The notes: generated from the sequence alone by a model not told the origin. A DNA stretch of 64,000 nucleotides from an uncultured Thermodesulfobacteriota bacterium (GCA_964611295.1 CAZSWV010000001.1:1869-65868), one strand, 5' to 3'; counted from the first letter of the stretch, positions 29,873 through 57,593 are shown. Made by a program: numbers and translations.

Positions 29873-29902
29873 TTGACAACCAATGGGATATATTGGTAAA
29901 AA
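29873..29902 (+). promoter_or_regulatory. candidate sigma70-type promoter of the TetR/Hdr/Etf operon
   Basis: TTGACA (29873-29878), an 18-nt spacer, then TAAAAA (29897-29902). It lies in the only sizeable intergenic gap upstream of the operon. Confidence 0.35.
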
Positions 29903-29905
29903 ACC

Positions 29906-29919
29906 ACCGAGCGATCGGT
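29906..29919. promoter_or_regulatory. inverted repeat ACCGA-N4-TCGGT, candidate TetR operator
   Basis: ACCGAGCGATCGGT lies immediately downstream of the candidate -10 and 20 nt upstream of the TetR start codon. Confidence 0.3.
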
Positions 29920-29938
29920 ATATAAGGGGGGTGAAGGG

Positions 29939-30514
29939 GTGTCGAAGAGGGAGAGGGTACTTGAGGTAGCTGTAAAGCTTTTTGCTGCGCGGGGTTTTGA
30001 TGGGACTTCGGTGAGGAAGATAGCGGATGAAGCGGGGTTAAGTGTGGCGGGTATGTTTCACTATTTTCCTTCCAAAGAGGATATCCTTTTTGAGATCATG
30101 AGCAGTTTTTTAGACGAGGGGTTGAAGAGGCTTAAGGAGATCTGTTCGGGGACTAAGGGGACGGTGGAGAAGCTTGAGGAGGTGTGTAGGTTCTTCACCG
30201 AGTATTTTGCTGGGCACATGGATGAGTTGACCATCCTTTCTTCTGAGGGCAAGAGCCTTTCCTTGGAGCACAGGGAAGTGTTCAAGCAGAAGCAAAGGGA
30301 GTACCTTGAGGCGATCAGAGGGCTTTTAGAGGAGTTGAAGGCACAGGGTATGTTGAAAGAGATGGACACCACTGTGCTTTCCTTTTTGTTTTTCGGCATG
30401 GCCCTGTGGACTTCTCGTTGGTATAACCCCAAGGGCAGGGTCAACCCTAAGGAGCTAGGCGATATCATGAGCGAGGTCTTCTTACGAGGGATCCTCAAGG
30501 AAGGGGGAAGATGA
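29939..30514 (+). CDS. TetR/AcrR-family transcriptional regulator (FadR-like context)
   Basis: 191 aa with a GTG start and HTH FAARGFDGTSVRKIADEAGLSVAGMFHYFPSKEDIL. It has a 4-nt overlap with the next gene. Confidence 0.9.
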   Translation: MSKRERVLEVAVKLFAARGFDGTSVRKIADEAGLSVAGMFHYFPSKEDILFEIMSSFLDEGLKRLKEICSGTKGTVEKLEEVCRFFTEYFAGHMDELTILSSEGKSLSLEHREVFKQKQREYLEAIRGLLEELKAQGMLKEMDTTVLSFLFFGMALWTSRWYNPKGRVNPKELGDIMSEVFLRGILKEGGR

Positions 30515-33348
30515 AGGCCGACCTTCTGGTCTTAGGGGCGGGTGTAGCGGGTATGAAGGTATCGCTTGAAGCGGCCTCAAGGGGTTTGGAGGTCGTCGTA
30601 GTGGAGGGCTCTCCTTTTGTGGGTGGAGAGATCACCTATCTTGAGCGTCAGTTCCCCACTGATAGGTGCCTTTTATGTCAGATGTTACCTACAACAGTGC
30701 GAAGGGGGGAGGGTGAGTATTGTCTACGCAGGTCCTTCAGGTATCCAGGGGTGGTCCTCTTTACGCGTTCAGAGCTTGTGAAGCTTGAAGGACAAGAAGG
30801 CGATTTCAAGGCCTTGGTGAAGAGGGTTCCAAGGGGGGTTAAAGAGGAAAGGTGTATAAGTTGCCTCAAGTGCATAGAGGTTTGCCCAAGAGAGGCACGT
30901 GACGATTTTAACCCCTTCGCTTCCAGGAAGGCCATGTTCTTAAAAGGTCCAGAGCCTATCCCCCCTGTGCCTGCTGTGGATTGGTCCCTTTGTGACCGGT
31001 GTGGAAATTGCGCAGAGGTCTGTCCTACGAAGGCGGTGGACTTGTGGGGGGAAGGAGAGGAATTGGAGTTATCGGTGGGTTCAGTGGTGCTAGCCACGGG
31101 TTTTGTACCTTATGATCCCACGGCCTTAACCCAATATGGCTATCAGAGGTTTAAGAACGTTTTAACGGCCTTTGACTTTGAGAGGATGTTGAGCCCCCTT
31201 GGTCCCTTTTTGCCTTTTAGACCTTCAGATGGAGAGGTCCCGAGGAAGTTGGGGTTTCTCTTGTGTGTGGGTTCAAGGGACAAGGACTGGGAGCCTTGTT
31301 CGGGTTCTTGCTGTATGATCGCCTTGAAACAAGCACGGCTCACCAAAGAAAGGCTTCCAGAAGCTGAGGTAGTGCTTTTCTATATGGACATAAGGACCTA
31401 TGGAAAGGGGTACCATGTTTACCTGGAGGAGGCCAAGAAGAGGGGAATAAAGTTCATAAGGGGCAGGGTTCCAAAGCTATGGGAGGATCCTGTATCCAAG
31501 AGGGTGCTTTTGCGTTATATGGAAGCCGAAGAGGTGAAAGAAGAGGCCTTTGACCTCGTAGTGTTAGTTACAGGACAAAGACCCCCTGAGGGTTTTGAAG
31601 GCCTTTCTCGGGTTCTTGGGCTCGAATGCGATCCATGGGGGTTCATCAAGGCCGAAGGCGTTAAGACCTCAAGGGGGGGCATTTACGTATGCGGATCTGC
31701 TTCGGGTCCTAAGGACATTGTCGATACCGTAACTGAAGCGCTTGCAGTAGCCTCTGAGGTTTCAAAGGGGAAAAGGGGAAAAGGGGAAAGAAGGGCGCCT
31801 TTACCTGAGCCTTCCGAGGGCCTTGACCTCATACTGTGCAGTTGCGGAGGTGAGTTGCCCGTAGACGTGTTCCTTGAAGAGTTTAAGGGCAAGTTCGACC
31901 GAGTAACGGTCAAAGAATACCTATGTCTTGAAGGGGGAGAAGGCCTTGGCGACCGTAGGACCGTAATAGGTGCGTGCAGTCCTTATTGGTATAAGGAGAA
32001 GGTACGCTCATCCCTTGGTCTGCCTCCAAGCCGCTTGGAGTGGGTTAACCTCAAAGCCGCCTTCACTGCCCAGGGGAGAGAAGCCGTATTGGGCCTTCTT
32101 TTAGGGGCAAGGGAAAGGCTCATAAGGAGTAAGGAGGTCGTACGCTTCGAAGATGGACCTGTCCCATCGGCGGTAGTTTTAGGTGGAGGCCTTTGCGGCC
32201 TTAATGTAGCACTTGGGCTCGCCCGTGAGGGCCTTATGGTTCACCTCATAGAGAAAGAAGGCGAACTCGGTGGGGTCATGCGGGAATACGTTTTCTTGAG
32301 GGAGGAGTTATTGGGGCTTCTTAAGGAGCTGGAAGGGGTTCAAGGGGTTGAGGTATACCTGAAGAGTCGTTTGAAAAAAGTGGTCGGTGTGGGTGGGAGG
32401 TTCAAGGTTGAGATCGAGAAGGCCAACGGTGAGGTCAAGGACCTTGAGGTTGGGGTTATAGTCGTCGCTATAGGTTCGAAGAGGGTTTTGCCAGAGGGGT
32501 TTTCTTCCCTTAAAGGTCAAAGGGTGGTTTCCCAAAGGGAGCTTTGGAACGACTTAATGGTGGGACGCCAACCGGAAGGGACCGTCCTGATGCTACTGTG
32601 TGGTGGAACCCGCACGGGGGAACGTCCGTGGTGTAACCGTTACTGTTGTGAAGAGGCTTTGAGTAACGCCTTGGCGTTGAGGCAAAAAGGGGTTGAAGTT
32701 TTCATATTGTTTAAGGACATGATGAGCTATGGGCTCAAGGAGTCCCTTTACTTTGAAGCGAGGAGAAAGGGTGTAGTTTTCTTGAGGTACGAGGAAGAGC
32801 CCGAGGTAGAGGTTTCAGATAAGGTGAGGGTACGCCTCAAGGGGGTTGAACTGGAAGGGGACCTTTTGGTGATACCAGAGGTGGAGGTCCCGCGGGAGGA
32901 CAATTGGGAATTGGCAGGAGTCCTGGGGGTGGACCTCGATCTGCAGGGCTTTTTCAAGGAAGCTGAACCCAAGTTTAGGCCAGTGGATGCCTTGAAAGAG
33001 GGCATTTACATATGTGGGGGGTGCCATAGCCCGCGGTCCTTCGAGGAGGCAAAGGTACAGGCGAAGGCAGTGGTCCAGAGGGTAATGGCCTTTATGTCCC
33101 AAAGGGCCCAAGGGTTCCCCCTTTCCTATGTGGAAGAAAGGCGCTGTTCTGGTTGTGGCCTCTGTGTAAAAGCATGCCCATATGGGGCCAGATACTTGGA
33201 GGAAGGGGAAAAGGTGGCAAAGGTCATAGCTTCCATATGTCAGGGGTGTGGTACTTGTTGTTCCCTTTGCCCGAACGGGGCCTCAAAACTTGAGGGGGCA
33301 AGGGAAGAACAGGTCCTTTCAGCCATTGAAGCCATGGTGGGGAGGTAG
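30511..33348 (+). CDS. HdrA-like FAD/Fe-S oxidoreductase, internally duplicated (two HdrA-type modules, 945 aa)
   Basis: Module 1 has LVLGAGVAGM...FPTDRCLLCQMLP, an inserted 2x[4Fe-4S] (CISCLKCIEVCP, CDRCGNCAEVCP), and LLCVGSRD...CSGSCCM. Module 2 has VVLGGGLCGL... and LLCGGTR...CNRYCCEE. There is a C-terminal 2x[4Fe-4S] (CSGCGLCVKACP, CQGCGTCCSLCP). Confidence 0.85.
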   Translation: MKADLLVLGAGVAGMKVSLEAASRGLEVVVVEGSPFVGGEITYLERQFPTDRCLLCQMLPTTVRRGEGEYCLRRSFRYPGVVLFTRSELVKLEGQEGDFKALVKRVPRGVKEERCISCLKCIEVCPREARDDFNPFASRKAMFLKGPEPIPPVPAVDWSLCDRCGNCAEVCPTKAVDLWGEGEELELSVGSVVLATGFVPYDPTALTQYGYQRFKNVLTAFDFERMLSPLGPFLPFRPSDGEVPRKLGFLLCVGSRDKDWEPCSGSCCMIALKQARLTKERLPEAEVVLFYMDIRTYGKGYHVYLEEAKKRGIKFIRGRVPKLWEDPVSKRVLLRYMEAEEVKEEAFDLVVLVTGQRPPEGFEGLSRVLGLECDPWGFIKAEGVKTSRGGIYVCGSASGPKDIVDTVTEALAVASEVSKGKRGKGERRAPLPEPSEGLDLILCSCGGELPVDVFLEEFKGKFDRVTVKEYLCLEGGEGLGDRRTVIGACSPYWYKEKVRSSLGLPPSRLEWVNLKAAFTAQGREAVLGLLLGARERLIRSKEVVRFEDGPVPSAVVLGGGLCGLNVALGLAREGLMVHLIEKEGELGGVMREYVFLREELLGLLKELEGVQGVEVYLKSRLKKVVGVGGRFKVEIEKANGEVKDLEVGVIVVAIGSKRVLPEGFSSLKGQRVVSQRELWNDLMVGRQPEGTVLMLLCGGTRTGERPWCNRYCCEEALSNALALRQKGVEVFILFKDMMSYGLKESLYFEARRKGVVFLRYEEEPEVEVSDKVRVRLKGVELEGDLLVIPEVEVPREDNWELAGVLGVDLDLQGFFKEAEPKFRPVDALKEGIYICGGCHSPRSFEEAKVQAKAVVQRVMAFMSQRAQGFPLSYVEERRCSGCGLCVKACPYGARYLEEGEKVAKVIASICQGCGTCCSLCPNGASKLEGAREEQVLSAIEAMVGR

Positions 33349-33350
33349 AG

Positions 33351-33767
33351 ATGTCCCAAAGGAAGGTAATAGGGTTCTTCTGCCATTGGTGTACATCTAC
33401 AGCCGCTGACCTTGCTGGTACCTTGAGGCGGACCTATCCTCCTTCGGTGAAGCCCATACGGGTGATGTGTACAGGTTCGGTGGATCCGGTCTATGTCTTA
33501 GATGCCCTTCTAAAGGGTGCTGATGCCGTATGGGTAGGGGGGTGTAATCCAGGCGAATGCCACTATGTTAGTGGCAACCTCAAGGCTAGGAGGCGTATAG
33601 CCCTGATCAAGGCAATACTGGAGGCCTTGGGCCTTGACCCCCAGAGGTTGTACCTCACGTGGATAAGCGCAAGCGAAGGACCACAGTTTGCCGAATGGGC
33701 CAAAAGGATCGACGAGCAATCCGAGCAGAGGGGGCCAAGTCCTTTCTTGGGACTTAAGACTACATAA
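33351..33767 (+). CDS. mvhD: MvhD/FlpD-like [2Fe-2S] protein (methyl-viologen-reducing hydrogenase delta-subunit family)
   Basis: 138 aa reading IGFFCHWCTSTAADLAG...IRVMCTGSVDP...GADAVWVGGCNPGECHY. Confidence 0.88.
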   Translation: MSQRKVIGFFCHWCTSTAADLAGTLRRTYPPSVKPIRVMCTGSVDPVYVLDALLKGADAVWVGGCNPGECHYVSGNLKARRRIALIKAILEALGLDPQRLYLTWISASEGPQFAEWAKRIDEQSEQRGPSPFLGLKTT

Positions 33768-33777
33768 GGGGTGAAGG

Positions 33778-34878
33778 ATGGCATACGGCGCTTGGTTTGA
33801 GGCCGATGGGAAAGAGATCCAAAGGGTTTTAAGGGAACTCTGGAGGCACATGCTCGAGCGTTTCTTCTCCGGGCTGGTAGTGACCATTGAGGTGGAAGGA
33901 GGTGGTCTTGCACCGGGCCTTTTGCCAAAAGGGGGTGATGTGGAAGGCACAAGGGCTTTGGCGCCCTATATGGCCTTGAACGCTGCTAGGGTATTACAGG
34001 CTCTAACGAAGGTTACCCCCCCTTCAGAACCCATAGGGGCTGTTTTGAGGCCATGTGAAGCAAGGGCTACTGTTGAACTTATGAAGTTGAATCAAGTCTC
34101 AAGGGAGGGCCTTTTTGTGATCTCCATAGACTGCTTGGGTACCTATCCTTTGCAAGTGTATAAAGAAAGGCTCAAAGAAGGGGTAGCTGAAGAGAAGTTG
34201 CCCGAGGAAGGGTTGCTCAGGGAGGCATGTAAGGTATGCCTTTGGCCCCTTTCACCATGGGCAGATATAAGGGTGGGCTATATAGGGCTCAGGGATGGGG
34301 TGTTCCTCGAAGCCTTGACCGAAAGGGGGGAAGAAGTACTCAAGGCCTTAGGGCTCAAACCAGATCGCGTGGAGCTTCCGGAGCGCCTCAAGGAGCTTGA
34401 CGAACTCCTCCAAAGGAGGCGGGAAGCGGAGGAGGAGTTCTTTAGGCGCCAAAGGGAAGAACTTTGGGGCCATCAAGCCTTGCTCAAGTCCTTAACGTGG
34501 TGTGTGAAATGCCACAATTGTATGACGGTATGTCCCATATGCTACTGTAGGGAGTGTTTCTTCAACTCCCCGAGCCTTGAGTTCGAGGCCGATAGGTTCC
34601 TCGAACTTAGCAAAAGAAGGCCGGCACTTAGGCTTCCAACCGAGGTCCTTCTGTTCCACCTGACCAGGATGGCCCATATGTCCACTTCGTGTGTAGCTTG
34701 TGGGATGTGCCAAGAGGCTTGTCCACAGGGTGTGAAGGTCTTTGAGCTTTTCAAGGTCGTTTCCAAGCGCACGCAGGCCCTTTTCGAGTACGAACCGGGG
34801 CGGGATCCGGAGGAGCCATTACCCCTTACGGTCTTCAAGGAAGAGGAACTGAAAGAGGTAGAGGAGCCGAAAATATGA
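33778..34878 (+). CDS. Fe-S protein with FrhB/FdhB-like N-terminal region and Cys-dense C-terminal cluster motifs
   Basis: 366 aa. IGAVLRPCEARATVELMKLNQ...FVISIDCLGTY resembles the FrhB/FdhB PCq..a...L...iG..C pattern. The C-terminus has CVKCHNCMTVCPICYCRECFF and CVACGMCQEACPQG. Confidence 0.55.
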   Translation: MAYGAWFEADGKEIQRVLRELWRHMLERFFSGLVVTIEVEGGGLAPGLLPKGGDVEGTRALAPYMALNAARVLQALTKVTPPSEPIGAVLRPCEARATVELMKLNQVSREGLFVISIDCLGTYPLQVYKERLKEGVAEEKLPEEGLLREACKVCLWPLSPWADIRVGYIGLRDGVFLEALTERGEEVLKALGLKPDRVELPERLKELDELLQRRREAEEEFFRRQREELWGHQALLKSLTWCVKCHNCMTVCPICYCRECFFNSPSLEFEADRFLELSKRRPALRLPTEVLLFHLTRMAHMSTSCVACGMCQEACPQGVKVFELFKVVSKRTQALFEYEPGRDPEEPLPLTVFKEEELKEVEEPKI

Positions 34879-35378
34879 AGCTCAAGGAGAAGTTCCCGAG
34901 CGTTTACGAATGCTACCAGTGCATGACCTGTACTTTGGGTTGCCCCTTAGCACATAAGATGGAGTCCAAACCCCATGAGCTTGTGAAGTCGGTCCTTTTG
35001 GGCAGGGACGAAGAGGTGCTTCGTTCAGATACCCCATGGATTTGCGCCTCATGCGAGGCCTGTGCAGCGAGATGTCCAAATGGCATAGAGCTAGTGGAAC
35101 TGATGGACCTGGTCAGAAAAGAGGCCATGGACCTTGGGGCGGTAAGGCCTAAGGAAAGGGACTTATACAAGGCCTTCATGGAGCAGATCAGGAAGAGGGG
35201 CAGGGTCCAGGAGTTCTGGCTTGTCTTCCGGTTGAAGAGGGCACAAGGCTTCAAGGTTTCCCTTGAGGAGGTCCTATTGGGGTTGAGGATGTTTCTTAAG
35301 GGCAAGCTTAACCCCTTTACGGGTTTCAGGAAGGGGCCTAAGGGGCTTGAAGAGGCCTTCAAGGAGGTTCTGGGGTGA
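34875..35378 (+). CDS. hdrC: heterodisulfide reductase subunit C-like protein
   Basis: 167 aa with CYQCMTCTLGCP and CASCEACAARCP. Confidence 0.85.
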   Translation: MKLKEKFPSVYECYQCMTCTLGCPLAHKMESKPHELVKSVLLGRDEEVLRSDTPWICASCEACAARCPNGIELVELMDLVRKEAMDLGAVRPKERDLYKAFMEQIRKRGRVQEFWLVFRLKRAQGFKVSLEEVLLGLRMFLKGKLNPFTGFRKGPKGLEEAFKEVLG

Positions 35379-36208
35379 GGTTTGCTTACTATCCGGGTTG
35401 TTCCTTAGAAGGATCGGCCAAGGAATACGACGAATCCTTACGCGCGGTGATGGGCTTAGTTGGGATAGAGCTTGTGGAGATAAAGGACTGGAATTGTTGT
35501 GGAGCCTCTGCGGTACACGGAGTCACTCCTTTTCTTAGGGTCCTTTTGCCTGCTAGGGACCTCCTTGAGGCGGAGTCCATGGGGCTTGACATCATAGCGC
35601 CCTGTGCAGCCTGTTTTTTGAGGTTAAAGGAGGCAAAGAGGACCCTAAAGGAGAGGTCCTCCTTCAAGGACAAGGTCGAAAAGGTCCTTGATAAGGCCTT
35701 CAGAGGTGAGGTCGAGGTTTACCATCCCCTTGAGGTGTTAAGCCGAAAGGAGGTGAGGAGTAGGTTAGAAGATAAAGCCATCAGGCCTCTAGAAGGGGTT
35801 AAGGCAGTGTGTTATTACGGATGCTATTTGGTAAGGCCGAAAGGCCTGACGGGGATAGACGACCTTGAAAATCCAACCGTCATGGAGACGATCCTTGAGG
35901 TCGTAGGGGTAGAGGTGCTCGATTGGTCCTTTAAGGTGGACTGTTGTGGCGGGAGTCATTCGCTCCTTCGGCCGGAATTAGTTAGGGAGCTTTCTGGAAA
36001 GCTCGGGGAGAGGGCAAGACAAGCGGGGGCAGACTTAATAGTGACTGCTTGCCCCCTTTGTCAGTCTAACTTGGAGATATACCAAGGTCCCAAAGGTGTG
36101 CCCGTGCTTTACTTTACAGAAATACTGGGAGTGGCCATGGGGGCCGAGGGTGCTTCCAAATGGCTAAAGAGGCATCTGATAAAGCCTCCCGAAGGGCTTT
36201 GGGGATAA
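35375..36208 (+). CDS. hdrB: heterodisulfide reductase subunit B-like protein (two CCG domains)
   Basis: 277 aa with YYPGCSL, WNCCGAS, CYYGCYL, VDCCGGS and ACPLCQ. Confidence 0.87.
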   Translation: MRFAYYPGCSLEGSAKEYDESLRAVMGLVGIELVEIKDWNCCGASAVHGVTPFLRVLLPARDLLEAESMGLDIIAPCAACFLRLKEAKRTLKERSSFKDKVEKVLDKAFRGEVEVYHPLEVLSRKEVRSRLEDKAIRPLEGVKAVCYYGCYLVRPKGLTGIDDLENPTVMETILEVVGVEVLDWSFKVDCCGGSHSLLRPELVRELSGKLGERARQAGADLIVTACPLCQSNLEIYQGPKGVPVLYFTEILGVAMGAEGASKWLKRHLIKPPEGLWG

Positions 36209-36231
36209 AAGATGGGAAAGGAGGGAAGGGG

Positions 36232-37377: not shown

Positions 37378-38507
37378 TGGAGTTCGCACAGAAGTTTGAG
37401 CTTTATGCCTGCCTACAATGTGGCAAGTGCACCGGTGGATGTCCTGTGGCCATGCGGACCCCTTTGAACGTGAGGATGCTTATGAGGGAAGCCCTCATCT
37501 ATGGGGTCGATGTCCTTTTGGGACGTCCGGAGATTTGGGACTGTACTACCTGTAAGACCTGTACCCTAAGGTGTCCACGGAAGCTTGAGCCCTCCGAAGT
37601 GCTGATAGCCATTAGGGCAAAGTTGGTGGAATCTGGCCGCATACCGAAAAACGTGATCGATGCCTTGGAGGCCACATACGTTCACGGAAACCCGTGGGGA
37701 AGGGCGCGCCAGAAAAGGACCGAGTGGGCCAAAGGGTTAGGGGTTAAGGAGGTTGCAGCTGGAGAGAGGGTAGAGCTATTGGGCTTTGTCTGTTGTGCTG
37801 TAGCTTACGACCCAAGGCTTCAACCCATTGCCCAAACCTTTGCCAAGGTCATGGCCATCTCAGGGGTGGACTTCGGCATCATAGGGATAGAGGAGAGTTG
37901 CTGCGGAAATGAAATCCGGAGGATGGGGGAAGAGGGGTTGTTCGAAGAACTTAAGGACTCCAACAAGGCCTTGATCGAGGGATCTGGGGCAAAGGAGGTG
38001 GTAGCGCTTTCGCCTCACTGTTTCAACGCTTTGAAGAACGAATACAGGCTGGAGGGCGTAAGGGCGATCCATTACACGGAAATATTGGAGGGATTGATCA
38101 GTCAAGGGCGTTTGCCCCTTAAGGGACCTTTGGCCAAAAGGGTCGTTTATCATGATCCTTGTTTTTTAGGCAAACAAAATGGGGTATACGAGGCTCCGAG
38201 GAGGGTATTGGAGGCCATAATCGGTACTGCCCCTTTGGAGTTTTCGAGGTCTAGGGAGACAAGCCTCTGTTGTGAAGGGGGAGGGGGTAGGATGTGGGTA
38301 GAGGGGACGGGCACAGGGGTTCGAAACAGCGAAATAAGGGTCAAGGAGGCCCTGGAGATGGGCGCAGAGGTGGTAGCCACAGCATGTCCCTTCTGTTTAT
38401 TGACCTTAGAGGATGCCTTGAAGACTACGGGCCTTGAAGGGAAGCTTGAGGTTAAGGACATCTTGGAGCTTCTCGGAGAGGCCCTTGGGGTGGAGGTGGA
38501 TCGATGA
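37374..38507 (+). CDS. soluble (Fe-S)-binding oxidoreductase with 2x[4Fe-4S] motifs and two CCG domains (HdrD/GlpC/LutA-like)
   Basis: 377 aa with CLQCGKCTGGCP, CTTCKTCTLRCP, VCCAVAYD, ESCCGNE, HDPCFLG, SLCCEGGGG and ACPFC. No hydrophobic segment long enough for a transmembrane helix is visible. Confidence 0.82.
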   Translation: MMEFAQKFELYACLQCGKCTGGCPVAMRTPLNVRMLMREALIYGVDVLLGRPEIWDCTTCKTCTLRCPRKLEPSEVLIAIRAKLVESGRIPKNVIDALEATYVHGNPWGRARQKRTEWAKGLGVKEVAAGERVELLGFVCCAVAYDPRLQPIAQTFAKVMAISGVDFGIIGIEESCCGNEIRRMGEEGLFEELKDSNKALIEGSGAKEVVALSPHCFNALKNEYRLEGVRAIHYTEILEGLISQGRLPLKGPLAKRVVYHDPCFLGKQNGVYEAPRRVLEAIIGTAPLEFSRSRETSLCCEGGGGRMWVEGTGTGVRNSEIRVKEALEMGAEVVATACPFCLLTLEDALKTTGLEGKLEVKDILELLGEALGVEVDR

Positions 38508-39283
38508 AAGTGGTGGTCTGTCTGAAGAGGGTACCAGATGTAGCCGAGGTGGACTTACAACTGGACCCATCTGGCAGAAGGATAAGGACTGAGGGGTTGC
38601 CTTACGTCATAAACGATTGGGATAACTACGCCCTTGAGGAGGCCATTCGTATTAAAGAGCGTACAGGTGGTCAAGTGATAGCCTTGACGGTTGGAAAGGA
38701 ACCAGATGAGGAGGTGTTAAGGCGTGCCTTGGCCCTTGGGGCTGATGATGCCATTAGGATATGGGATCCCTTGCTAGAGGAGGCAGACCCCTTCCTTATC
38801 GCAGTGGTGTTATCCCAAGCCATAAAGGGCCTTGCCTTTGACCTTGTGCTTACAGGGGTTCAGGCCTCCGATGACGGCTACGCCCAGGTTGGTCCTATGA
38901 TGGCCGAGATGTTGGGGATACCACATGTGACGCTTGTGACCCATCTTGGTTTTGAAGGCAAAAAAGCACTGGTAAGGAGAGAACTAGAGGGAGGGCTTGA
39001 AGAGGAGGTGGAAGTAGAACTTCCGGCACTGTTGACCATCCAAAGTGGCATAAACGAACCACGCTACGTTTCTGTCTTAGGGATAAAAAGGGTAGCCAAG
39101 AAAGAGATAAAAGTCCTGGACTTAGAGGCATTAGGGATATCCCCCTCTGAAATTAGGCCAAAAATTAAGGTTGAGAAGCTCTTTGTGCCTCCCAGCGGTG
39201 AAGGAGCGGAGATCCTTAAGGGCTCTCCTGAAGAGGTCTCCGATAAGGTCCTTGAGATCCTTGAGAAAGGAGGTGTGATCTGA
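38504..39283 (+). CDS. etfB: electron transfer flavoprotein beta subunit
   Basis: 259 aa with MKVVVCLKRVPD, NDWDNYALEEA and QASDDGYAQVGP. Confidence 0.93.
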   Translation: MKVVVCLKRVPDVAEVDLQLDPSGRRIRTEGLPYVINDWDNYALEEAIRIKERTGGQVIALTVGKEPDEEVLRRALALGADDAIRIWDPLLEEADPFLIAVVLSQAIKGLAFDLVLTGVQASDDGYAQVGPMMAEMLGIPHVTLVTHLGFEGKKALVRRELEGGLEEEVEVELPALLTIQSGINEPRYVSVLGIKRVAKKEIKVLDLEALGISPSEIRPKIKVEKLFVPPSGEGAEILKGSPEEVSDKVLEILEKGGVI

Positions 39284-39284
39284 G

Positions 39285-40256
39285 ATGAGGCCAATAATAG
39301 TATTGGCTGAACACCGTCAAGGACAGTTACGCGACATCACCTTTGAGATGTTGAAAAAAGCACAAGGGCTTTCTGAGGCTTTAGGGCAGGAAGTCCACAC
39401 CGTTTTGATAGGAGAAGGCCTTTCGGAAATGGTCGAAGGGGTAAGACCTTATTGTCATAAGGTCCACCTGGTACCTGTGGAAGGCGTAAAAGAATTCGAA
39501 GGCGAAGTATACCAAGCTGCTTTGACAAGGCTCATCAAGGACCTTACCCCCTCGCTAGTCCTCATAGGCCATACGGCCCAAGGGATGGACCTTGCCCCTG
39601 CGCTAGCCTGTGCCATTAACAGTCCTTTGGTCAGCGACTGTTATGACTTCGGCTTTAGGGAAGGTCGCTTTTGGGCCTTCAGACAGGTCTACGGTGGGAA
39701 ACTATCGGCCCAAGTGGAGGTCGAAGGGAGTCCGGTGATAGTGACGGTTCGATCAGGTTCCTTTGAGGCCGAGGGATTGAGGACTTTAGGGGGACAGGTG
39801 GTAAGTTGGGAAGGGCCAGTAGGGGTTTTCCCCTACAAAAGGTTCCTGAGGTTCGTAGAAGCCCCTCGCGCAGAAGTGGACATCACGCAGGCCGAGGTCA
39901 TCGTTTCGGTGGGAAGGGGAATAGGAGGACCAGAAAACATCCCCTTAGCAGAGGAACTCGCAAAGGCCTTAGGAGGGGTGCTGGCATGTTCGAGACCAGT
40001 TGTGGACAAGGGTTGGTTGCCAAAGGAAAGGCAGGTGGGTACTTCTGGTAAGACTGTCAAACCTAAGGTCTACATCGCCTTAGGGATAAGCGGGGCTTTT
40101 CAACACGTGGCGGGTATGAAGCAATCTGGGCTCATCATAGCCGTTAACAAGGATCCAAAGGCTCCTATTTTCGGTGTGGCCCACTACGGGATTGTGGGGG
40201 ACCTGTTACAAGTAGTCCCCGTGCTTTTGGCCAAACTTAAAGAGAGGAAGAAGTAA
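39285..40256 (+). CDS. etfA: electron transfer flavoprotein alpha subunit
   Basis: 323 aa with SRPVVDKGWLPKERQVGTSGKTVKPKVYIALGISGAFQHVAGM...AVNKDPKAPIF. It has no N-terminal ferredoxin domain. Confidence 0.93.
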   Translation: MRPIIVLAEHRQGQLRDITFEMLKKAQGLSEALGQEVHTVLIGEGLSEMVEGVRPYCHKVHLVPVEGVKEFEGEVYQAALTRLIKDLTPSLVLIGHTAQGMDLAPALACAINSPLVSDCYDFGFREGRFWAFRQVYGGKLSAQVEVEGSPVIVTVRSGSFEAEGLRTLGGQVVSWEGPVGVFPYKRFLRFVEAPRAEVDITQAEVIVSVGRGIGGPENIPLAEELAKALGGVLACSRPVVDKGWLPKERQVGTSGKTVKPKVYIALGISGAFQHVAGMKQSGLIIAVNKDPKAPIFGVAHYGIVGDLLQVVPVLLAKLKERKK

Positions 40257-42941
40257 ATGGCAGAAAAGGCGGTTTTGGTAATAGGGGGAGGGATAGCCGG
40301 AATGCAAGCGGCCTTGGACGTGGCCGATGCAGGTTATAAGGTTTACCTTGTGGAAAAGGAGGGATGGATTGGAGGGCATATGGCCCAACTTGATAAGACC
40401 TTCCCCACCAACGACTGCGCTATGTGTACCATCTCGCCAAAGCTTACCGAGGTAGGGCAACATCCAAATATTGAGTTATTGACGAATAGCACGGTGATAT
40501 CCCTTGAAGGCCAAGAGGGTGAGTTCAGGGCCAAGGTCCTCAAAAGGCCTAGGTTCGTTGACCCTTCTAAATGCAATGCCTGTGGGGAGTGTATAAAGGT
40601 CTGCCCGGTAGAACTTCCTAACGAGTTCGACCAGGGGTTAAGTAAGAGGAAGGCCATTTACAAGGCTTATCCTCAGGCCATACCCAATGCCATGGCCATC
40701 ACCAAACTCCAAAGGCCTCCATGTGTCCTCAGCTGTCCTGCAGGGGTTAACGTTCAAGGCTATATAGCCCTCCTTTTGGCAGGGAAGTTGGAAGAGGCAT
40801 ATGAGCTCATTTGGGAGAGAAACCCCTTTGTAGGGACCTGTGGGAGGGTTTGTTACCATCCTTGTGAAAAGGCGTGCAACAGGAATCAGCTGGATGAGCC
40901 TGTGGCCATCAACAGCCTCAAGAGGTTTATCAGCGACTGGGCCAGGGACAGGGGTATAAGGCCTAAGGTACGGGTTTCGATTGACCCTGCGAGGCCAAAG
41001 GTAGCAATTGTGGGGTCGGGGCCAGCTGGCCTCACAGCTGCCAGGGACCTCCTCCTTATGGGATATCCTGTAACGGTCTTTGAGGCTGCTTCAAACCTAG
41101 GAGGCATGCTATCCCAGGCCATCCCCCCTTATAGACTTCCCAGGGAGGTCTTACAGTTCGACATAGAGAGGATCTTGGAGCTCGGTTTAGAGGTAAAAAC
41201 AGGCGTACGGGTTGGTAGAGACATTACCCTTGAACAGTTGAGGGAAGATGGTTATAGGGCCATATTCTTAGCTATAGGTCTTCCAAAGGGGCAAGGGTTG
41301 AAGATAGAAGGGGCTGAGCTCAAAGGGGTCCTTTTCGCCCTTGACTTCTTGAGAGAGGTAAATAAAGGAGGAAGGCCCTCTTTAAGGGAGCCTGTGGTGA
41401 TAATAGGGGGTGGTAACACCGCTATAGATACAGCCCGTACTGTCCTGAGGTTAGGGGTAAGGGATGTGACCATCCTTTACCGACGAACCGAAGGGGAAAT
41501 GCCAGCTTCCCCTGAAGAGGTCCAACAGGCAAAAGAGGAAGGGGTAGGCTTTGAATTCTTGGTGACGCCGGTAAGGTTTTTGGGGGAAAGGGAGGTGGAG
41601 GCTGTTGTCCTTCAAAGGATGGAGCTCGGCGAGCCAGACGAAAGTGGCAGGAGGCGACCTGTGCCCCTTCCAGGTTCGGAATTCGTGAAGCAGGTCGGGA
41701 CCGTTATCCTTGCCATAGGGCAGACAGGGGACCTCGATTGGGTGAGGGACTGTGGCATAAGGCTCACTCGGGCAGGGACCATAGAGGTGGATCCTTTGAC
41801 ACTCCAAACCTCGGTTCCCGATGTCTTTGCCGGTGGAGACGTGGTTACGGGTCCTGGGTTCGTGGTAGACGCCATAGGTCAAGGCCATCAGGCAGCTATT
41901 TCCATAGACCGCTACCTTAGGGGCATGGATTTAAGGGAAGGGAGGGATAAAGGGGCCATCGAGCCTGCGAGTTTGCCACGTATCGTACGATCTATTTCCT
42001 CCAGGGTACAAACCAAGAAGCTTGAAGCCTCCAAGAGGGTGAAGTCCTTTGAAGAGGTGGAATTGACCTTAAAAGAGGAAGAGGCCAAAGGCGAAGCGGA
42101 AAGGTGTCTTCAGTGTGGGGTTTGTTGTGAGTGCTTCCAATGCGTAAAGGCGTGTGAACAAAAGGCCATAGACCATTCGCAAAGGGAAGAGGAGGTCGAA
42201 CTATCGATAGGGGCTGTGATTGTGGCTACGGGATACGATCTTTTCGATCCACGTCAGAAGCCAGAATATGGTTATGGGCGCATAAAAGGGGTGATAACAG
42301 GCCTTGAACTCGAACGCCTCATGTCCTCTTCTGGGCCTACGGGAGGGGATCTGACAATAGAAGGTAAAAGGCCCAAAGACGTGGTCTTTATCCAATGTGT
42401 GGGATCAAGGGATCGGACGGTTAACAGGCCTTATTGTTCCCGCGTCTGTTGTATGTATGTAGCCAAACAGGCCCAAGAGGTAAAAGAACGCTTGAAAGAG
42501 GTAAGGATCACCATCTGTTATATGGACGTCAGGGCGTACGGAAAGGGCTACGAGGGCCTCTACGAAAGGGTCCAACGGCGTGGGGTCCTTTACCGCCGTG
42601 GCATTCCATCAGAAGTCTACCAGAGGGACGGGAAGTTGATCCTCAAGGGTGAAGACACCTTATTGGGGAAGCCTTATGAACTTGAGGCAGACCTCGTAGT
42701 CCTAGCATGTGGCATAGGACCTTCGGAAGGGGCCAAAGAATTGGCCTCGGTCCTCGGGCTTGAGGTCGATGAGCACGGGTTCTTTAAAGAGGCAAATCCC
42801 CTGGATCCTGTGGTTTCTACAAGACCAGGGGTTTTCCTTGCTGGCTGTTGCCAGGGGCCAAAGGACATAAGCGATTCGGTAGCCCAAGCCTCAGGTGCCG
42901 CCGCTAGGGCCTTGGCTTTGATATCGAGGGTTAGGTCATGA
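40257..42941 (+). CDS. HdrA-type flavoprotein interrupted by a GltD/NfnB-type NAD(P)H:Fe-S module (HdrL-like, 894 aa)
   Basis: The HdrA N-terminus reads VLVIGGGIAGMQAALDVA...FPTNDCAMCTISPKL, with CNACGECIKVCP. The insertion at ~40730-41930 has CPAGVNVQGYI...GRVCYHPCEKAC, VAIVGSGPAGLTAA and VVIIGGGNTAIDTA. The HdrA C-terminus has FIQCVGSRD...YCSRVCCMY. Confidence 0.85.
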   Translation: MAEKAVLVIGGGIAGMQAALDVADAGYKVYLVEKEGWIGGHMAQLDKTFPTNDCAMCTISPKLTEVGQHPNIELLTNSTVISLEGQEGEFRAKVLKRPRFVDPSKCNACGECIKVCPVELPNEFDQGLSKRKAIYKAYPQAIPNAMAITKLQRPPCVLSCPAGVNVQGYIALLLAGKLEEAYELIWERNPFVGTCGRVCYHPCEKACNRNQLDEPVAINSLKRFISDWARDRGIRPKVRVSIDPARPKVAIVGSGPAGLTAARDLLLMGYPVTVFEAASNLGGMLSQAIPPYRLPREVLQFDIERILELGLEVKTGVRVGRDITLEQLREDGYRAIFLAIGLPKGQGLKIEGAELKGVLFALDFLREVNKGGRPSLREPVVIIGGGNTAIDTARTVLRLGVRDVTILYRRTEGEMPASPEEVQQAKEEGVGFEFLVTPVRFLGEREVEAVVLQRMELGEPDESGRRRPVPLPGSEFVKQVGTVILAIGQTGDLDWVRDCGIRLTRAGTIEVDPLTLQTSVPDVFAGGDVVTGPGFVVDAIGQGHQAAISIDRYLRGMDLREGRDKGAIEPASLPRIVRSISSRVQTKKLEASKRVKSFEEVELTLKEEEAKGEAERCLQCGVCCECFQCVKACEQKAIDHSQREEEVELSIGAVIVATGYDLFDPRQKPEYGYGRIKGVITGLELERLMSSSGPTGGDLTIEGKRPKDVVFIQCVGSRDRTVNRPYCSRVCCMYVAKQAQEVKERLKEVRITICYMDVRAYGKGYEGLYERVQRRGVLYRRGIPSEVYQRDGKLILKGEDTLLGKPYELEADLVVLACGIGPSEGAKELASVLGLEVDEHGFFKEANPLDPVVSTRPGVFLAGCCQGPKDISDSVAQASGAAARALALISRVRS

Positions 42942-44623
42942 AGTGGGGGAGGCGTGTAGGCGTATATATTTGCCATTGTGGGAGGAACATTGCAGGCTAT
43001 GTGGACATAGAAGCACTTGTGGAAAAGGTGCGGGGGCTAAAAGGGGTTGTTACAGTCAAACACGAAAGGTACATGTGTTCTGAACAAGGCCAACAGTTGA
43101 TAAAGGAAGACATAAGGGAAGGCCTGGTGGATAGGGTAGTAGTGGCGTCTTGTACCCCGACCATGCACGAAAGGACCTTCCGAAGGTGCGTTTCAGAGGC
43201 CGGTTTGAACCCTTTCCTTTACCAGCAGGTAAATATAAGGGAGAACTGCTCTTGGGTGACAGAGGACGTCCATGAGGCCACTCAGAAGGCCTTCGAGCTG
43301 ATAAAGGCAGGGGTTTGGCGGGTAAAGTGTCTTGAGCCCCTTGAACCTTTGCAATACCCTCTCATCCCTTCCACTTTGGTGATCGGGGGAGGTATAGCGG
43401 GGATAATAGCCGCTTTGGATATATCGGAGGCAGGGTTTGAGGTCATAGTGGTGGAGAGGGAGGGAGAGCTTGGGGGGTGGGGGAGGAAGATAGGAGTAAG
43501 TTTTCCGCAACTTGTGCCTGTGAAGGATTTCCTTGAAGGACTTATAGGAAAGCTTCTTTGCAGGTCAAACGTGAAGGTCTACCTCAAGAGCGAAGTAGAG
43601 CAGGTAGAAGGGTTTTCAGGCAATTTCACCGTTAAGATAAGGACTGAGAAAGGGGTATTCGAAGAGAAAGTGGGCAGTATAATAGTAGCTACTGGTTTTA
43701 CGCCCTTTGATGCGAAGAGGAAGGCCGAGTATGGCTACGGGAGGTTCCCCCAGGTGTTGACAACTGTAGATGTAGAGGAGAGGTTTGTTAACGGATGGCC
43801 TGAAAGAGGGGGAATAAAATCGGTGGCCTTTATCCAATGTGTGGGGTCAAGGGATCAAACTATAGGAAGACCCTATTGTTCACGCGCCTGCTGTACAGTG
43901 GTGGCCAAGCAAGCCCTGCTCCTCAAAAGGCTTTTCCCTGAGGCCAGGGTTTACGTCTTTTATATGGACGTAAGGACCTTCGGCAAGGGGTATGAGGAGC
44001 TTTTTGAAGAAGCCCAAAGGGAAGGGGTTGTATACATTAGGGCCAATCCCGGTGAGGTCTATCCCCTGAGGGACAAGCTTGTAGTGAGGTATGAGGATAC
44101 CCTTTTAGGAAGGCCTTCGGAGCTTGAAGTTGACCTTTTAGTTTTGGCCGTTGGTATGGAACCGCCACAGGGGGTGAAGGAACTGATGAAGAAACTCTAT
44201 CTGAATGCAGATGCCGATGGTTTTTTCCTAGAGTCCCATCCCAAACTTGGTCCTGTGGATACCTTTTCCGAAGGGGTGTTTCTGGCTGGTTGTTGTCAGG
44301 GGCCGAAGGACATCCTGGATACCATCTCACAGGCCCATGCCGCGGCTGCGAGGGCTACGAGGCTGTTCCATGTAGGGAAGGCGATAAAAGAGCCGGTTGT
44401 AGCAGAGGTAGATCATGAAGTATGCGCGCGGTGTAGGATATGTGAGGCTACATGTAGCTTTAACGCCGTTACCTATGACCCCAAGGCCAAACGTATGAAA
44501 GTGATAGAAGCAGCTTGCAAGGGCTGTGGGGCTTGTGCTGCGTCATGTCCTTCGGGGGCTATGAGCCTTAAACACTTCCGTTACAGACAGACCTTACTCC
44601 CCATCGAAGCCGTCCTTCATTAA
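42938..44623 (+). CDS. hdrA: heterodisulfide reductase subunit A-like flavoprotein (methanogen-style N-terminal domain)
   Basis: 561 aa. It has VGVYICHCGRNIAGYVDIEAL...YMCSEQGQ...VVVASCTPTMHERTFR...NIRENCSWV, then VIGGGIAGIIAA and FIQCVGSRD...YCSRACCT. The C-terminal 2x[4Fe-4S] is CARCRICEATC and CKGCGACAASCP. Confidence 0.88.
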   Translation: MKWGRRVGVYICHCGRNIAGYVDIEALVEKVRGLKGVVTVKHERYMCSEQGQQLIKEDIREGLVDRVVVASCTPTMHERTFRRCVSEAGLNPFLYQQVNIRENCSWVTEDVHEATQKAFELIKAGVWRVKCLEPLEPLQYPLIPSTLVIGGGIAGIIAALDISEAGFEVIVVEREGELGGWGRKIGVSFPQLVPVKDFLEGLIGKLLCRSNVKVYLKSEVEQVEGFSGNFTVKIRTEKGVFEEKVGSIIVATGFTPFDAKRKAEYGYGRFPQVLTTVDVEERFVNGWPERGGIKSVAFIQCVGSRDQTIGRPYCSRACCTVVAKQALLLKRLFPEARVYVFYMDVRTFGKGYEELFEEAQREGVVYIRANPGEVYPLRDKLVVRYEDTLLGRPSELEVDLLVLAVGMEPPQGVKELMKKLYLNADADGFFLESHPKLGPVDTFSEGVFLAGCCQGPKDILDTISQAHAAAARATRLFHVGKAIKEPVVAEVDHEVCARCRICEATCSFNAVTYDPKAKRMKVIEAACKGCGACAASCPSGAMSLKHFRYRQTLLPIEAVLH

Positions 44624-47903: not shown

Positions 47904-47904
47904 G

Positions 47905-56177: not shown

Positions 56178-56222
56178 AATTGGCCTTACCCCTGTGAAAA
56201 CCAAGTTAAGGAGGTTACGAGG

Positions 56223-57584: not shown

Positions 57585-57593
57585 TGGTAGCAA

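Follow-up and report, generated by a model that had tools for sequence, protein, structure and literature searches.

Introduction

When fatty acids, alkanes and aromatics are degraded anaerobically, the energetic bottleneck is the oxidation of saturated acyl-coenzyme A (acyl-CoA; E0' ~-10 mV), and it is this step that limits syntrophic methane formation. To our knowledge the only characterised solutions are membrane-bound, namely EMO/EtfD with (methyl)menaquinone and a reverse redox loop driven by the proton-motive force, or ETF-QO. This work concerns a twelve-gene operon at positions 29939-44623 of a 64,000-nucleotide stretch of DNA (the window) from an uncultured Thermodesulfobacteriota bacterium, in which an acyl-CoA dehydrogenase (ACAD), a soluble EtfD-like protein and both subunits of an electron-transfer flavoprotein (ETF; EtfB and EtfA) are encoded together with three HdrA-type flavoproteins, HdrB, HdrC, MvhD and an FdhB-like subunit. 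The operon probably specifies a wholly cytoplasmic, HdrA-based bifurcating or confurcating system, whose high-potential partner would be the acyl-CoA/enoyl-CoA couple.

The described systems closest to this locus each share a part of it. EtfD, termed EMO in Syntrophus, is a membrane enzyme that delivers the electrons of reduced ETF to the (methyl)menaquinone pool, and the most recent EMO and EtfD papers deal with membrane-bound forms and BamD only (PMC13083937, bioRxiv 10.64898/2026.08.18.745454). In class II benzoyl-CoA reductase (BCRII) the high-potential electron passes from the bifurcating flavin adenine dinucleotide (FAD) of BamE through BamD to ETF, and this ETF was shown experimentally to reduce crotonyl-CoA via butyryl-CoA dehydrogenase (bioRxiv 10.64898/2026.04.10.717634). 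For expanded archaeal clusters, which contain an additional HdrA and HdrD, a serial arrangement of two bifurcations has been proposed (PMC12054007), and FlxABCD-HdrABC is known from sulfate reducers (Ramos et al. 2015). Published metabolic reconstructions of some carriers of the genes studied here either invoke Bcd/Etf operating in reverse or mention an unspecified 'Fe-S oxidoreductase' adjacent to Etf. A search of the full-text literature, in which subscription journals are not covered and an earlier mention is therefore possible, retrieved no description of an ACAD/soluble EtfD-like/EtfAB/HdrA cluster. Nor did the literature yield a characterised complex of this ACAD/ETF/Hdr composition, in agreement with a first-pass annotation of the window, made from the sequence, which knew of none. 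Components and principle are known, and it is this combination and its link to acyl-CoA that are uncharacterised.

Results and Discussion

Architecture of the operon

Twelve co-directional open reading frames (ORFs), with coordinates read from the window, follow one another in tight coupling on the + strand between 29939 and 44623; positions below refer to this strand unless marked (-). Five junctions are exact four-nucleotide overlaps (30511, 34875, 35375, 38504 and 42938) and further gaps measure 2, 10, 23, 1 and 0 nucleotides, the last of these separating etfA from the GltD-inserted HdrA gene. The first-pass annotation had described twelve near-gapless genes on one strand with remaining gaps of 0-23 nucleotides, and coordinates, strand and spacing were all reproduced. 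Five of its six four-nucleotide overlaps were found as well, while the sixth, at 37374, was lost when the start of gene 8 was moved from TTG 37374 to ATG 37377. The latter start is more likely, and there a TGATG creates a one-nucleotide overlap with the ACAD gene and a GGGAGG lies upstream. Similarly, the most probable start codon of the ACAD is ATG 36232, which is preceded by a GGAGGG Shine-Dalgarno sequence eight nucleotides upstream and yields 381 residues, matching its homologues, and not the start of the longest ORF (36160-37377). As had also been noted, the operon ends against a convergent gene, which encodes a metallo-beta-lactamase-fold protein (44620-45627 (-)) and overlaps the last stop codon by four nucleotides; the consensus promoter/terminator scan detected no terminator after 44623.

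A transmembrane-like hydrophobic stretch was found in none of the twelve products (0/12) when 19-residue Kyte-Doolittle windows were applied, the highest means (up to 2.04) corresponding to GxGxxG Rossmann strands. Chance gene calls are no concern, because every ORF matches its families strongly and the gene set recurs in other genomes. The domain order read earlier, from TetR to the last HdrA, agrees with Pfam gene for gene.

Gene 8 encodes a soluble relative of EtfD, EMO and BamD

Gene 8 (37377-38507) encodes a 377-residue protein, here named EtfDs, in which the cubane-cluster domain comes first and whose homologues span 372-392 residues. Pfam assigns Fer4 and a double CCG, and the motifs predict two cubane [4Fe-4S] clusters and two non-cubane-cluster (CCG) domains. 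The best solved-structure match is the cytoplasmic part of Mycobacterium smegmatis EtfD (9OJN_A, residues 408-742), recovered by phmmer with 184 bits (E 3e-53) over residues 53-368. The AlphaFold2 model of EtfDs, computed with 25 homologues, superposes on 9OJN with a Foldseek TM of 0.79 (E 7.5e-21), compared with ~0.5 for HdrB. The highest 19-residue hydropathy mean is 1.49, and both a transmembrane segment and the haem-b membrane domain are missing. Thus, the solubility previously attributed to the Etf-partner iron-sulfur (Fe-S) protein is borne out, and the protein can be described as a homologue of the cytoplasmic domain of EtfD/EMO.

Residues C141, C176, C177, H215, C263, C299, C300, C338 and C341 are invariant across 25 homologues. 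S213 and C216 are near-invariant in the family, two members of which carry CPHG, the arrangement implied for SaEMO by the H534/G535 numbering of the preprint. The first CCG domain contains four conserved Cys, with Ser213 (SPHC) replacing the first Cys of the HdrB CxxC, and it keeps CCG where the mycobacterial EtfD has CTG. His215 aligns with EtfD His583, and the equivalent His (EtfD H583, SaEMO H534 and BamD His230) fills the CoM-binding position of the proximal non-cubane cluster. This blocking His is taken in the EtfD, SaEMO and BamD papers as the mark of an electron-transfer site and not of a disulfide-reducing one. A Cys-to-Ser change has been reported for the distal cluster of BamD (bioRxiv 10.64898/2026.04.10.717634), and in the SaEMO structure ETF docks via EtfB on the non-cubane-cluster domain while its FAD domain swings to the clusters.

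By sequence and predicted fold, gene 8 is classed as a soluble member of the EtfD/EMO/BamD group, with BamD compared by description only, and not as an HdrD-type reductase. Lacking the membrane domain, it is not a strict EMO/EtfD. EtfDs homologues are abundant and unusually well conserved, with ~55% identity between bacterial and archaeal members, and the closest species-level relative is 68% identical. An exact-sequence look-up of gene 8 returned no record, and near-identical contigs were reached through the FdhB-like protein.

Three HdrA genes and the pseudo-dimers predicted from them

Gene 2 (30511-33348) encodes a 945-residue fused double HdrA of 'type II', resembling BamE, in which Pfam recognises two FAD/pyridine-nucleotide-disulfide-oxidoreductase regions and four ferredoxin-type motifs; it matches 5ODC_A in two stretches (349 bits). 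The N half comprises a TrxR domain with the DCxxC motif, an inserted 2x[4Fe-4S] domain and Lys273, while the C half comprises an N-domain cluster, a TrxR2 domain with Ser718 replacing the Lys, and a C-terminal 2x[4Fe-4S] domain.

The 894-residue product of gene 11 (40257-42941), of 'type III', is classified by Pfam as an HdrA carrying a Fer4_20/Pyr_redox_2 (GltD) insert. Its TrxR domain with DCxxC is accompanied by an inserted ferredoxin domain that is itself split by an NfnB/GltD-type NAD(P)H-FAD-2x[4Fe-4S] module; Lys737 is present, and the N-terminal cluster domain and the C-terminal ferredoxin domain are absent. The HdrA part matches 8RVV_A in two stretches (462 bits) and the insert matches 9BOV_A, NfnA (9N5U_A) and NfnI-L (5JCA_L). 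The nucleotide motif of the insert, GGGNTA, is of the GxGxxA type, which a survey of HdrA proteins linked to NADP, the GxGxxG type being linked to NAD. Gene 12 (42938-44623; 561 residues, HdrA by Pfam) contains an N-domain cluster, a TrxR domain with Lys324 and a C-terminal 2x[4Fe-4S] domain, without the inserted ferredoxin domain, and so supplies exactly the domains that gene 11 lacks. Relatives of gene 11 without the GltD insert measure 430-470 residues. Counterparts in which genes 11 and 12 are fused (~1500 residues) occur as single ORFs in two Chloroflexota-type loci, L088 (4010-8518) and L081 (1076-5800). Because these single ORFs join the two, genes 11 and 12 are assigned to one functional unit. 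The three HdrA genes would then represent two asymmetric pseudo-dimers, with gene 2 as a fused version of this pair that has no GltD insert.

The lysine at N5 of the bifurcating FAD, which we take to be Lys409 of HdrA in Methanothermococcus thermolithotrophicus numbering, corresponds in the alignment to Lys273, Lys737 and Lys324, with Ser718 at this position in the C half of gene 2. The Lys273/Ser718 pattern parallels that of BamE, where Lys280 is found at the bifurcating FAD and Gln768 at the structural, non-bifurcating FAD (bioRxiv 10.64898/2026.04.10.717634).

The acyl-CoA dehydrogenase and its electron-transfer flavoprotein

Gene 7 (36232-37377) contains all three acyl-CoA dehydrogenase domains in Pfam and matches the structures 5LNX (304 bits) and Clostridioides difficile Bcd (5OL2_C, 294 bits). 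The best NCBIfam match is AcrC, with 383 bits against a cut-off of 640, and the models of the three substrate classes considered (AcrC, cyclohexanecarbonyl-CoA and glutaryl-CoA dehydrogenase) all score well below their NCBIfam thresholds. The enzyme is assigned to the generic short/medium-chain type, for which the sequence does not allow a substrate to be named.

EtfB (gene 9, 38504-39283) and EtfA (gene 10, 39285-40256) are recognised by Pfam as ETF beta and ETF alpha. The nearest structure to EtfB is the Methylophilus W3A1 ETF (1O94_C, 181 bits), followed by CarD (149 bits) and C. difficile EtfB (133 bits). EtfB of the window carries DDGYAQVG and EEADPFLIA, and the 43 EtfB proteins encoded directly after EtfDs homologues give the consensus GVQAxDDG[YF]xQVG and EGSDxYA. 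The bifurcating EtfB signatures at these positions, which we take to be GDTAQVG and GADTLAT as working motifs and not as a curated definition, are missing. EtfA consists of the FAD domain without an N-terminal ferredoxin domain. The W3A1 ETF binds adenosine monophosphate (AMP), and AMP is also contained in the EMO-partner Etf of Syntrophus. Thus, the Etf is probably of the one-FAD, AMP-binding, non-bifurcating type, and a self-bifurcating Etf was set aside on the sequence signatures and the nearest structures. Since these working signatures of bifurcation are lacking, a different bifurcating flavin would be needed.

In four loci from metagenome-assembled genomes (MAGs) of Thermodesulfobacteriota/Deferrisomatales (L040, L044, L063 and L076) the EtfA encoded beside EtfDs is 508-550 residues long, with an N-terminal extension of 190-230 residues. 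A separate etfB was undetected in three of the four, L063 having one, which suggests that these long proteins are EtfB-EtfA fusions.

The MvhD, FdhB-like and HdrBC module

Gene 3 (33351-33767) encodes an MvhD/FlpD-type [2Fe-2S] adaptor (Pfam FlpD, 157 bits). Its codon 65 (33543-33545) is TGT (Cys) in the window and an in-frame TGA in L091 (9574-10000) and L092 (4260-4686), two contigs near-identical to the window (2 differences in 427 nucleotides), and in L011 (3562-3963), which belongs to the 68%-identical relative. At this TGA gene callers shorten MvhD to 64 residues, and more distant homologues have Cys. The MvhD of the TGA-bearing relatives is probably a selenoprotein, like VhuD and BamF. 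An 8-bp hairpin begins 13 nucleotides after the TGA codon in these relatives, with a fold energy that is unexceptional compared with shuffled sequences (z = -0.6).

Gene 4 (33778-34878) encodes a full-length flavo-iron-sulfur subunit of the FdhB/FrhB fold, for which Pfam gives an Fe-S protein with a weak FrhB_FdhB_C match. It carries one N-domain cluster (Cys93, 119, 151 and 154, all invariant) and a C-terminal 2x[4Fe-4S] domain. The phmmer matches are FdhB subunits of Fdh-Hdr complexes (9T1S_M, 7BKB_E and 8RVU_E), and the AlphaFold2 model (pLDDT 84.7) retrieves 7BKB_E as the top Foldseek match (E 3.7e-16, TM 0.69), followed by FrhB, Fsr and the beta subunit of SHI (sulfhydrogenase). An FdhA-like partner is not encoded in the operon.

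The HdrC-like product of gene 5 (34875-35378; 2x[4Fe-4S] in Pfam) contains eight Cys in two CxxCxxCxxxC motifs, and its CoB_CoM_SS_C score of 65 bits is below the cut-off. The HdrB-like product of gene 6 (35375-36208; double CCG in Pfam) contains two full five-Cys motifs (C9, C41, C42, C77, C80 and C150, C190, C191, C226, C229), both conforming to CX31-39CCX34-36CXXC, without a blocking His. A catalytic thiol/disulfide site is plausible in gene 6, because all ten motif Cys are intact and no His blocks access. Together, the operon presents the feature set of HdrABC-MvhD-FdhB: an HdrA with the Lys409 equivalent, HdrC, a complete HdrB, MvhD and an FdhB/FrhB fold.

Conservation of the gene set across bacteria and archaea

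A scan of one genome per species yielded at least 558 loci related to EtfDs, of which the best 80, all from MAGs, were annotated with the twelve window proteins as queries. The bacterial hosts among these 80 belong to Thermodesulfobacteriota, Syntrophaceae, Syntrophorhabdus, Dehalococcoidia, Anaerolineae, Bacillota, Actinomycetota, Gemmatimonadota and Planctomycetota, and the archaeal hosts to Ca. Methanolliviera, Ca. Alkanophaga, Halobacteriota and Bathyarchaeota, and also to Syntropharchaeia. Neighbourhoods were counted in those 32 loci in which the sequence extends 6 kb or more to either side of EtfDs, taking features within 10 kb. Genes for Etf and for HdrA were each present in 26/32, both together in 20/32 and ACAD in 23/32, while the GltD-inserted HdrA and the full HdrA, MvhD, FdhB-like and HdrBC module were each found in 4/32. 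The gene directly 3' of EtfDs is etfB in 43 loci, and the commonest order is ACAD-EtfDs-EtfB-EtfA-ACAD-HdrA(~440 residues)-HdrA(~650 residues).

The gene order of the window is kept in an 89%-identical contig (L001), over the extent of that contig, and in the 68%-identical L011. In L002 and L003 the twelve-gene set is reordered as TetR-ACAD-EtfDs-EtfBA-HdrA-HdrA-doubleHdrA-MvhD-FdhB-like-HdrC-HdrB, and in L010, from Chloroflexota, the same set has its Hdr module on the opposite strand. L006 and L016 encode EtfDs with HdrA-GltD, HdrA and the Hdr module, with etf and ACAD genes absent from the 10-kb flanks. In a Bacillota MAG (L069, 5535-18430) the order EtfDs-EtfB-EtfA-HdrA(675 residues)-MvhD continues into FlxB-, FlxC- and FlxA-like genes; this arrangement is read as a compact Flx-HdrA NADH module with EtfDs and Etf in the usual place of HdrBC. 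The genes selA and selB lie directly upstream of the EtfDs cluster of L069. In Ca. Syntropharchaeia (L008, 14072-16666; L009, 9653-12247) an NfnB/GltD-like module and an HdrD-like double-CCG module are joined in a single 864-residue protein, whose gene adjoins ACAD-EtfDs-EtfB-EtfA-ACAD and an HdrA pair with MvhD. When gene order is permuted but content is kept, and fusions arise independently, the proteins concerned classically act together.

Proposed electron path

From the gene content, homologies, ligand motifs, absence of membrane segments and conserved linkage described above, we infer the subunit contacts, the electron path, its possible direction and the substrate of HdrBC as follows. 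Electrons would pass between ACAD and a one-FAD, non-bifurcating EtfAB, which would exchange them with the non-cubane clusters of EtfDs. The cubane clusters of EtfDs would in turn connect to the [4Fe-4S] cluster beside the bifurcating FAD in the products of genes 11 and 12, taken together as an asymmetric HdrA pseudo-dimer. For the same flavin, the inserted NfnB/GltD module would provide a link to NAD(P)H, and the remaining branch would lead to ferredoxin or, via MvhD, to a second Hdr unit. This second unit (double HdrA, MvhD, FdhB-like subunit and HdrBC) resembles an apparently complete FdhB-MvhD-HdrA-HdrBC bifurcating disulfide reductase; it would probably exchange ferredoxin, or electrons via MvhD, with the first unit, the thiol/disulfide couple of HdrBC being a further partner. 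The net reaction, reversible, would be 2 NAD(P)H + oxidised ferredoxin + enoyl-CoA <-> acyl-CoA + reduced ferredoxin + 2 NAD(P)+. A reaction of the Bcd/EtfAB type would thus be run at an HdrA flavin and not at the Etf beta-FAD, with neither quinone nor membrane involved.

The central electron-transfer step is plausible because the path from BamE through BamD to ETF is a direct experimental precedent. Two proposals of the first-pass annotation bear on this scheme. The first was that the Etf-partner Fe-S protein belongs with the Hdr components, and it gains from a linkage conserved across phyla despite permuted order, from the fusions and from the BamE-BamD-ETF precedent; the neighbourhood count across genomes, suggested as a check on the co-occurrence of ACAD, the CCG protein, etfBA and hdrA, placed etf and hdrA together beside EtfDs in 20/32 loci and an ACAD in 23/32. 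The second was a cytoplasmic Hdr-based route from acyl-CoA/enoyl-CoA to ferredoxin, NAD(P)H or a thiol/disulfide, which homology and comparative genomics support.

Several points weigh against the proposed scheme. The FdhB-like/MvhD/HdrBC module accompanies EtfDs in only four of the 32 well-flanked loci and may therefore be a separate enzyme, and the equally rare GltD insert (4/32) implies that not every such system uses NAD(P)H. The GltD module occupies the low-potential (ferredoxin) arm of canonical HdrA, so that a simple comparison with Bcd/Etf may not capture the actual wiring. With NADPH the oxidative direction is uphill under standard assumptions, as calculated from textbook potentials, and the non-bifurcating status of the Etf was read from sequence signatures alone.

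Alternative explanations

The rarity of the full module is also an argument for two independent neighbours under one regulator, an FdhB-MvhD-HdrA-HdrBC disulfide (DsrC-type) reductase and an ordinary beta-oxidation ACAD/ETF whose ETF would be reoxidised elsewhere, for instance by a membrane EMO encoded outside the window. Such a division would account for the 4/32 frequency, for the many loci that show just ACAD-EtfDs-EtfBA within the available sequence, and for archaeal clusters of type II HdrA, MvhD, FdhB and HdrBC that contain no Etf. It would leave EtfDs, which lacks a membrane domain, with no acceptor of its own. Moreover, hdrA lies beside EtfDs in 26/32 loci, and L006 and L016 keep the EtfDs-Hdr association without etf and ACAD. 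The HdrA pair of the window abuts etfA with a 0-nucleotide gap, the set is kept despite its permuted gene order, and fusions join GltD, the HdrD-like protein and HdrA units. Two separate enzymes are for these reasons considered doubtful.

A second alternative retains the same machine and reverses it, making the operon an NADPH-driven, ferredoxin-reducing enoyl-CoA reductase that replaces Bcd/EtfAB in fermentation or enoyl-CoA respiration and does not serve acyl-CoA oxidation. The thermodynamics of NADPH, calculated from textbook potentials, favour enoyl-CoA reduction, the GGGNTA motif of the GltD insert is of the NADP-linked GxGxxA type, and the best NCBIfam matches of ACAD and of the Etf subunits are components of acryloyl-CoA reductase, all below cut-off. 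Most of the hosts, in contrast, live by oxidising fatty acids, alkanes or aromatic compounds (Syntrophaceae, Syntrophorhabdus, Syntropharchaeia, Alkanophaga, Methanolliviera and Dehalococcoidia), the FadR-like TetR suggests a catabolic, substrate-induced operon, and other fermentation genes were not found adjoining it. We regard a dedicated reductase as rather doubtful. On the direction of flow as such the indications are divided, with host range and the FadR-like repressor favouring oxidation and NADPH thermodynamics favouring reduction.

Each turn of beta-oxidation delivers one reduced ETF (~0 mV) and one NAD(P)H (~-320 mV), in a ratio of 1:1. An extended form of the scheme, which we hold to be unlikely, would unite both Hdr units and the ACAD/ETF arm in one soluble supercomplex that couples confurcation and bifurcation. 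Its HdrA flavins would merge reduced ETF and NAD(P)H into mid-potential electrons, and these would reduce a DsrC-like protein or a low-molecular-weight disulfide via HdrBC, with ferredoxin balancing the account. Such a supercomplex, if real, would replace the membrane-bound, proton-motive-force-driven reverse redox loop of EMO, methylmenaquinone and formate dehydrogenase. Strict anaerobes could then oxidise acyl-CoA without membrane energy input, and a mechanism would also be at hand for the quinone-poor Dehalococcoidia and for alkane-oxidising archaea.

A further alternative, judged very unlikely, would make gene 8 a genuine thiol/disulfide reductase of the HdrD type that acts on a second disulfide and lies beside etfBA only incidentally. 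The two CCG domains, the first of them retaining CCG against CTG in mycobacterial EtfD, and the best NCBIfam match, the thiol:fumarate reductase subunit TfrB (141 bits, below cut-off), would fit such an enzyme. They are opposed by the invariant His215, whose counterparts in EtfD, SaEMO and BamD bar the substrate, and by the first CCG domain, in which only four Cys are conserved and one ligand has become Ser or Gly, as in non-catalytic relatives. In sequence and fold gene 8 is far nearer to EtfD than to HdrB, and etfB adjoins EtfDs in 43 loci.

A last alternative is that the locus belongs to class II benzoyl-CoA reductase (Bam) or to another reductase of aryl-CoA, with an aldehyde:ferredoxin oxidoreductase (AOR)-family gene 3.3 kb downstream as its BamB-type subunit. 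This would explain the BamE-like, BamF-like (selenocysteine in relatives), BamD-like and BamOP-like (etfBA) genes and an AOR-family gene within 20 kb, but is highly improbable and was ruled out, as the downstream protein is a genuine AOR (420 bits to Pyrococcus furiosus AOR, 1AOR; only 175 bits to BamB, 4Z3W, over its N-terminal third), is paired with an Fe-alcohol dehydrogenase and is separated from the operon by two opposite-strand genes, while homologues of BamC, BamG, BamH and BamI are absent from operon and flanks and NuoE/F/G-like genes are lacking in the flanks.

Should the soluble EtfD-like protein indeed be wired to HdrA, as the favoured cytoplasmic scheme proposes, it would constitute a second, quinone-independent solution to acyl-CoA oxidation. 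The gene set is widespread across bacterial phyla and alkane-oxidising archaea (Syntropharchaeia, Alkanophaga and Methanolliviera) and is not a one-genome curiosity, although the BamD-ETF result of 2026 makes the finding less surprising to specialists. The set also names the subunits to co-express and three or four substrates to assay, and so renders the question directly testable.

Candidate promoter and TetR regulator

Gene 1 (29939-30514) encodes a TetR regulator with TetR_N and TetR_C_24 domains, whose nearest solved relatives include KstR2, a Thermus thermophilus TetR and Bacillus subtilis FadR. It scores 56 bits against the NCBIfam FadR model (cut-off 200) and is not an equivalog of FadR. 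In L002, L003, L005, L011, L013 and L040 the first gene of the cluster likewise encodes a TetR of this type. By its domain composition the protein is placed in the TetR_C_24 branch, which includes CoA-thioester sensors, and acyl-CoA would probably derepress the operon through it.

The single promoter proposed earlier is legible by eye at 29873-29902 (TTGACA at 29873-29878, an 18-nucleotide spacer and an extended -10, TGgTAAAAA). The consensus scanner did not report it or any other + strand promoter upstream of tetR, and its predicted sites were no commoner than in shuffled sequences. Short dyads 3' of the candidate promoter, CCAAT..ATTGG and ACCGA..TCGGT, could serve as TetR operator, and the repeat finder returned no inverted repeat of at least 8 bases upstream of tetR. 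Because neither the scanner nor the inverted-repeat search recovered them, promoter and operator stay visual guesses.

Genomic setting and host

The operon is set in ordinary chromosomal DNA. Upstream of it the window contains a ribosomal-protein/secY/rpoA block, ruvB, a gene for a 1831-residue double UvrA-like protein and a divergent FKBP gene. The 1831-residue ORF (23845-29340, TTG start) resembles two complete tandem UvrA units, as judged from Pfam UvrA_DNA-bind, UvrA_inter and ABC_tran matches in the identical gene of L091, and a tRNA-Glu gene lies immediately before it on the opposite strand (23732-23809). A further ORF of 1125 residues (15660-19037 (-)) carries a GH130 mannoside phosphorylase domain in its C-terminal 310 residues only, the first ~800 residues having no Pfam match.

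Downstream are found a ZIP transporter gene, genes for an Fe-alcohol dehydrogenase and an AOR, Liv-type ABC transporters, a rhodanese and a corrinoid methyltransferase set. The Fe-alcohol dehydrogenase and the tungsten-type AOR (46638-49683) are also encoded 3' of the operon in the 89%-identical contig, and this pair could be a source of reduced ferredoxin for the operon. The corrinoid set (55542-60951) comprises a B12-binding protein, a UroD/MtaA-like protein, an unassigned 227-residue ORF, a RACo reductive activase and a pterin-binding methyltransferase, and is flanked by Liv-type ABC transporter genes and a double-rhodanese gene. Other beta-oxidation genes adjoining the operon were not found in the flanks within the window.

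SecY is 74-81% identical to proteins of 'Deltaproteobacteria' MAGs and 66-68% identical to those of Desulfacinum, Thermodesulforhabdus, Desulforhabdus and Syntrophobacteraceae. On this basis the host is assigned to an uncultured Thermodesulfobacteriota lineage near Syntrophobacteria. Its Glu/Lys/Arg/Val-rich proteins suggest, as an impression only, a thermophile.

Comparison with known systems

FlxA (NAD-binding, FAD and 2Fe-2S), FlxB and FlxC are absent from the window, although FlxB/C/A-like genes occur in the Bacillota locus L069, and because FlxABC is missing the operon is not a Flx-Hdr complex. The Hdr half is best regarded, from its gene content, as the bacterial counterpart of type II HdrA-MvhD-FdhB-HdrBC clusters. 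Genes 2-6 reproduce the set found in anaerobic methane-oxidising (ANME) archaea and methanogens (PMC12054007), and the 'expanded' archaeal clusters, with their extra HdrA and HdrD, are echoed by the extra HdrA and the HdrD-like proteins of the window. In contrast to those clusters, the host is bacterial and the operon has neither a molybdopterin-family subunit nor a coenzyme M/coenzyme B context, and it includes a GltD-inserted HdrA as well as ACAD and etfBA within the cluster.

With Bcd/EtfAB (Clostridium, Acidaminococcus and CarCDE) the operon shares ACAD and EtfAB, NAD(P)H and ferredoxin as likely partners, and the same proposed net reaction. The two differ in that the window EtfB is nearest to the AMP-binding W3A1 ETF and lacks the working motifs of bifurcating EtfB, bifurcation is proposed at an HdrA flavin, and six extra Fe-S/flavin subunits are encoded. 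Because the Etf is without those motifs, the system is judged from its sequence not to be a Bcd/EtfAB complex. EMO/EtfD shares with EtfDs its entire cytoplasmic part (two cubane clusters, two non-cubane-cluster domains and the blocking His) and a location beside ACAD and etfBA, as for the emo/etfD-type genes of syntrophs. In contrast, gene 8 has no NarI-like haem-b membrane domain and no quinone site, its distal ligands retain CCG with CxxC changed to SPHC, and its neighbours are HdrA flavoproteins.

The BamDEF-ETF system of Geobacter metallireducens, the nearest precedent among characterised systems, likewise combines a fused double HdrA, of whose TrxR domains one carries the Lys and the other does not, and an MvhD-type adaptor, selenocysteine being present in BamF and predicted in the closest relatives of the window. 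By the paper's description, and unaligned here, it also has a soluble HdrD-like subunit of ~380 residues with a His-ligated proximal cluster and a distal Cys-to-Ser change. Its ETF accepts the high-potential electron and can pass it to an acyl-CoA dehydrogenase, as is proposed on the window side. The window differs from Bam in having neither the tungsten BamBC catalytic module nor the BamGHI (HydBC-type) input module. In their place stand an NfnB/GltD insert, an FdhB-like subunit, canonical HdrBC, a second, split HdrA pair, and ACAD and etfBA inside the operon, and the low-potential acceptor would presumably be ferredoxin and not an aromatic ring.

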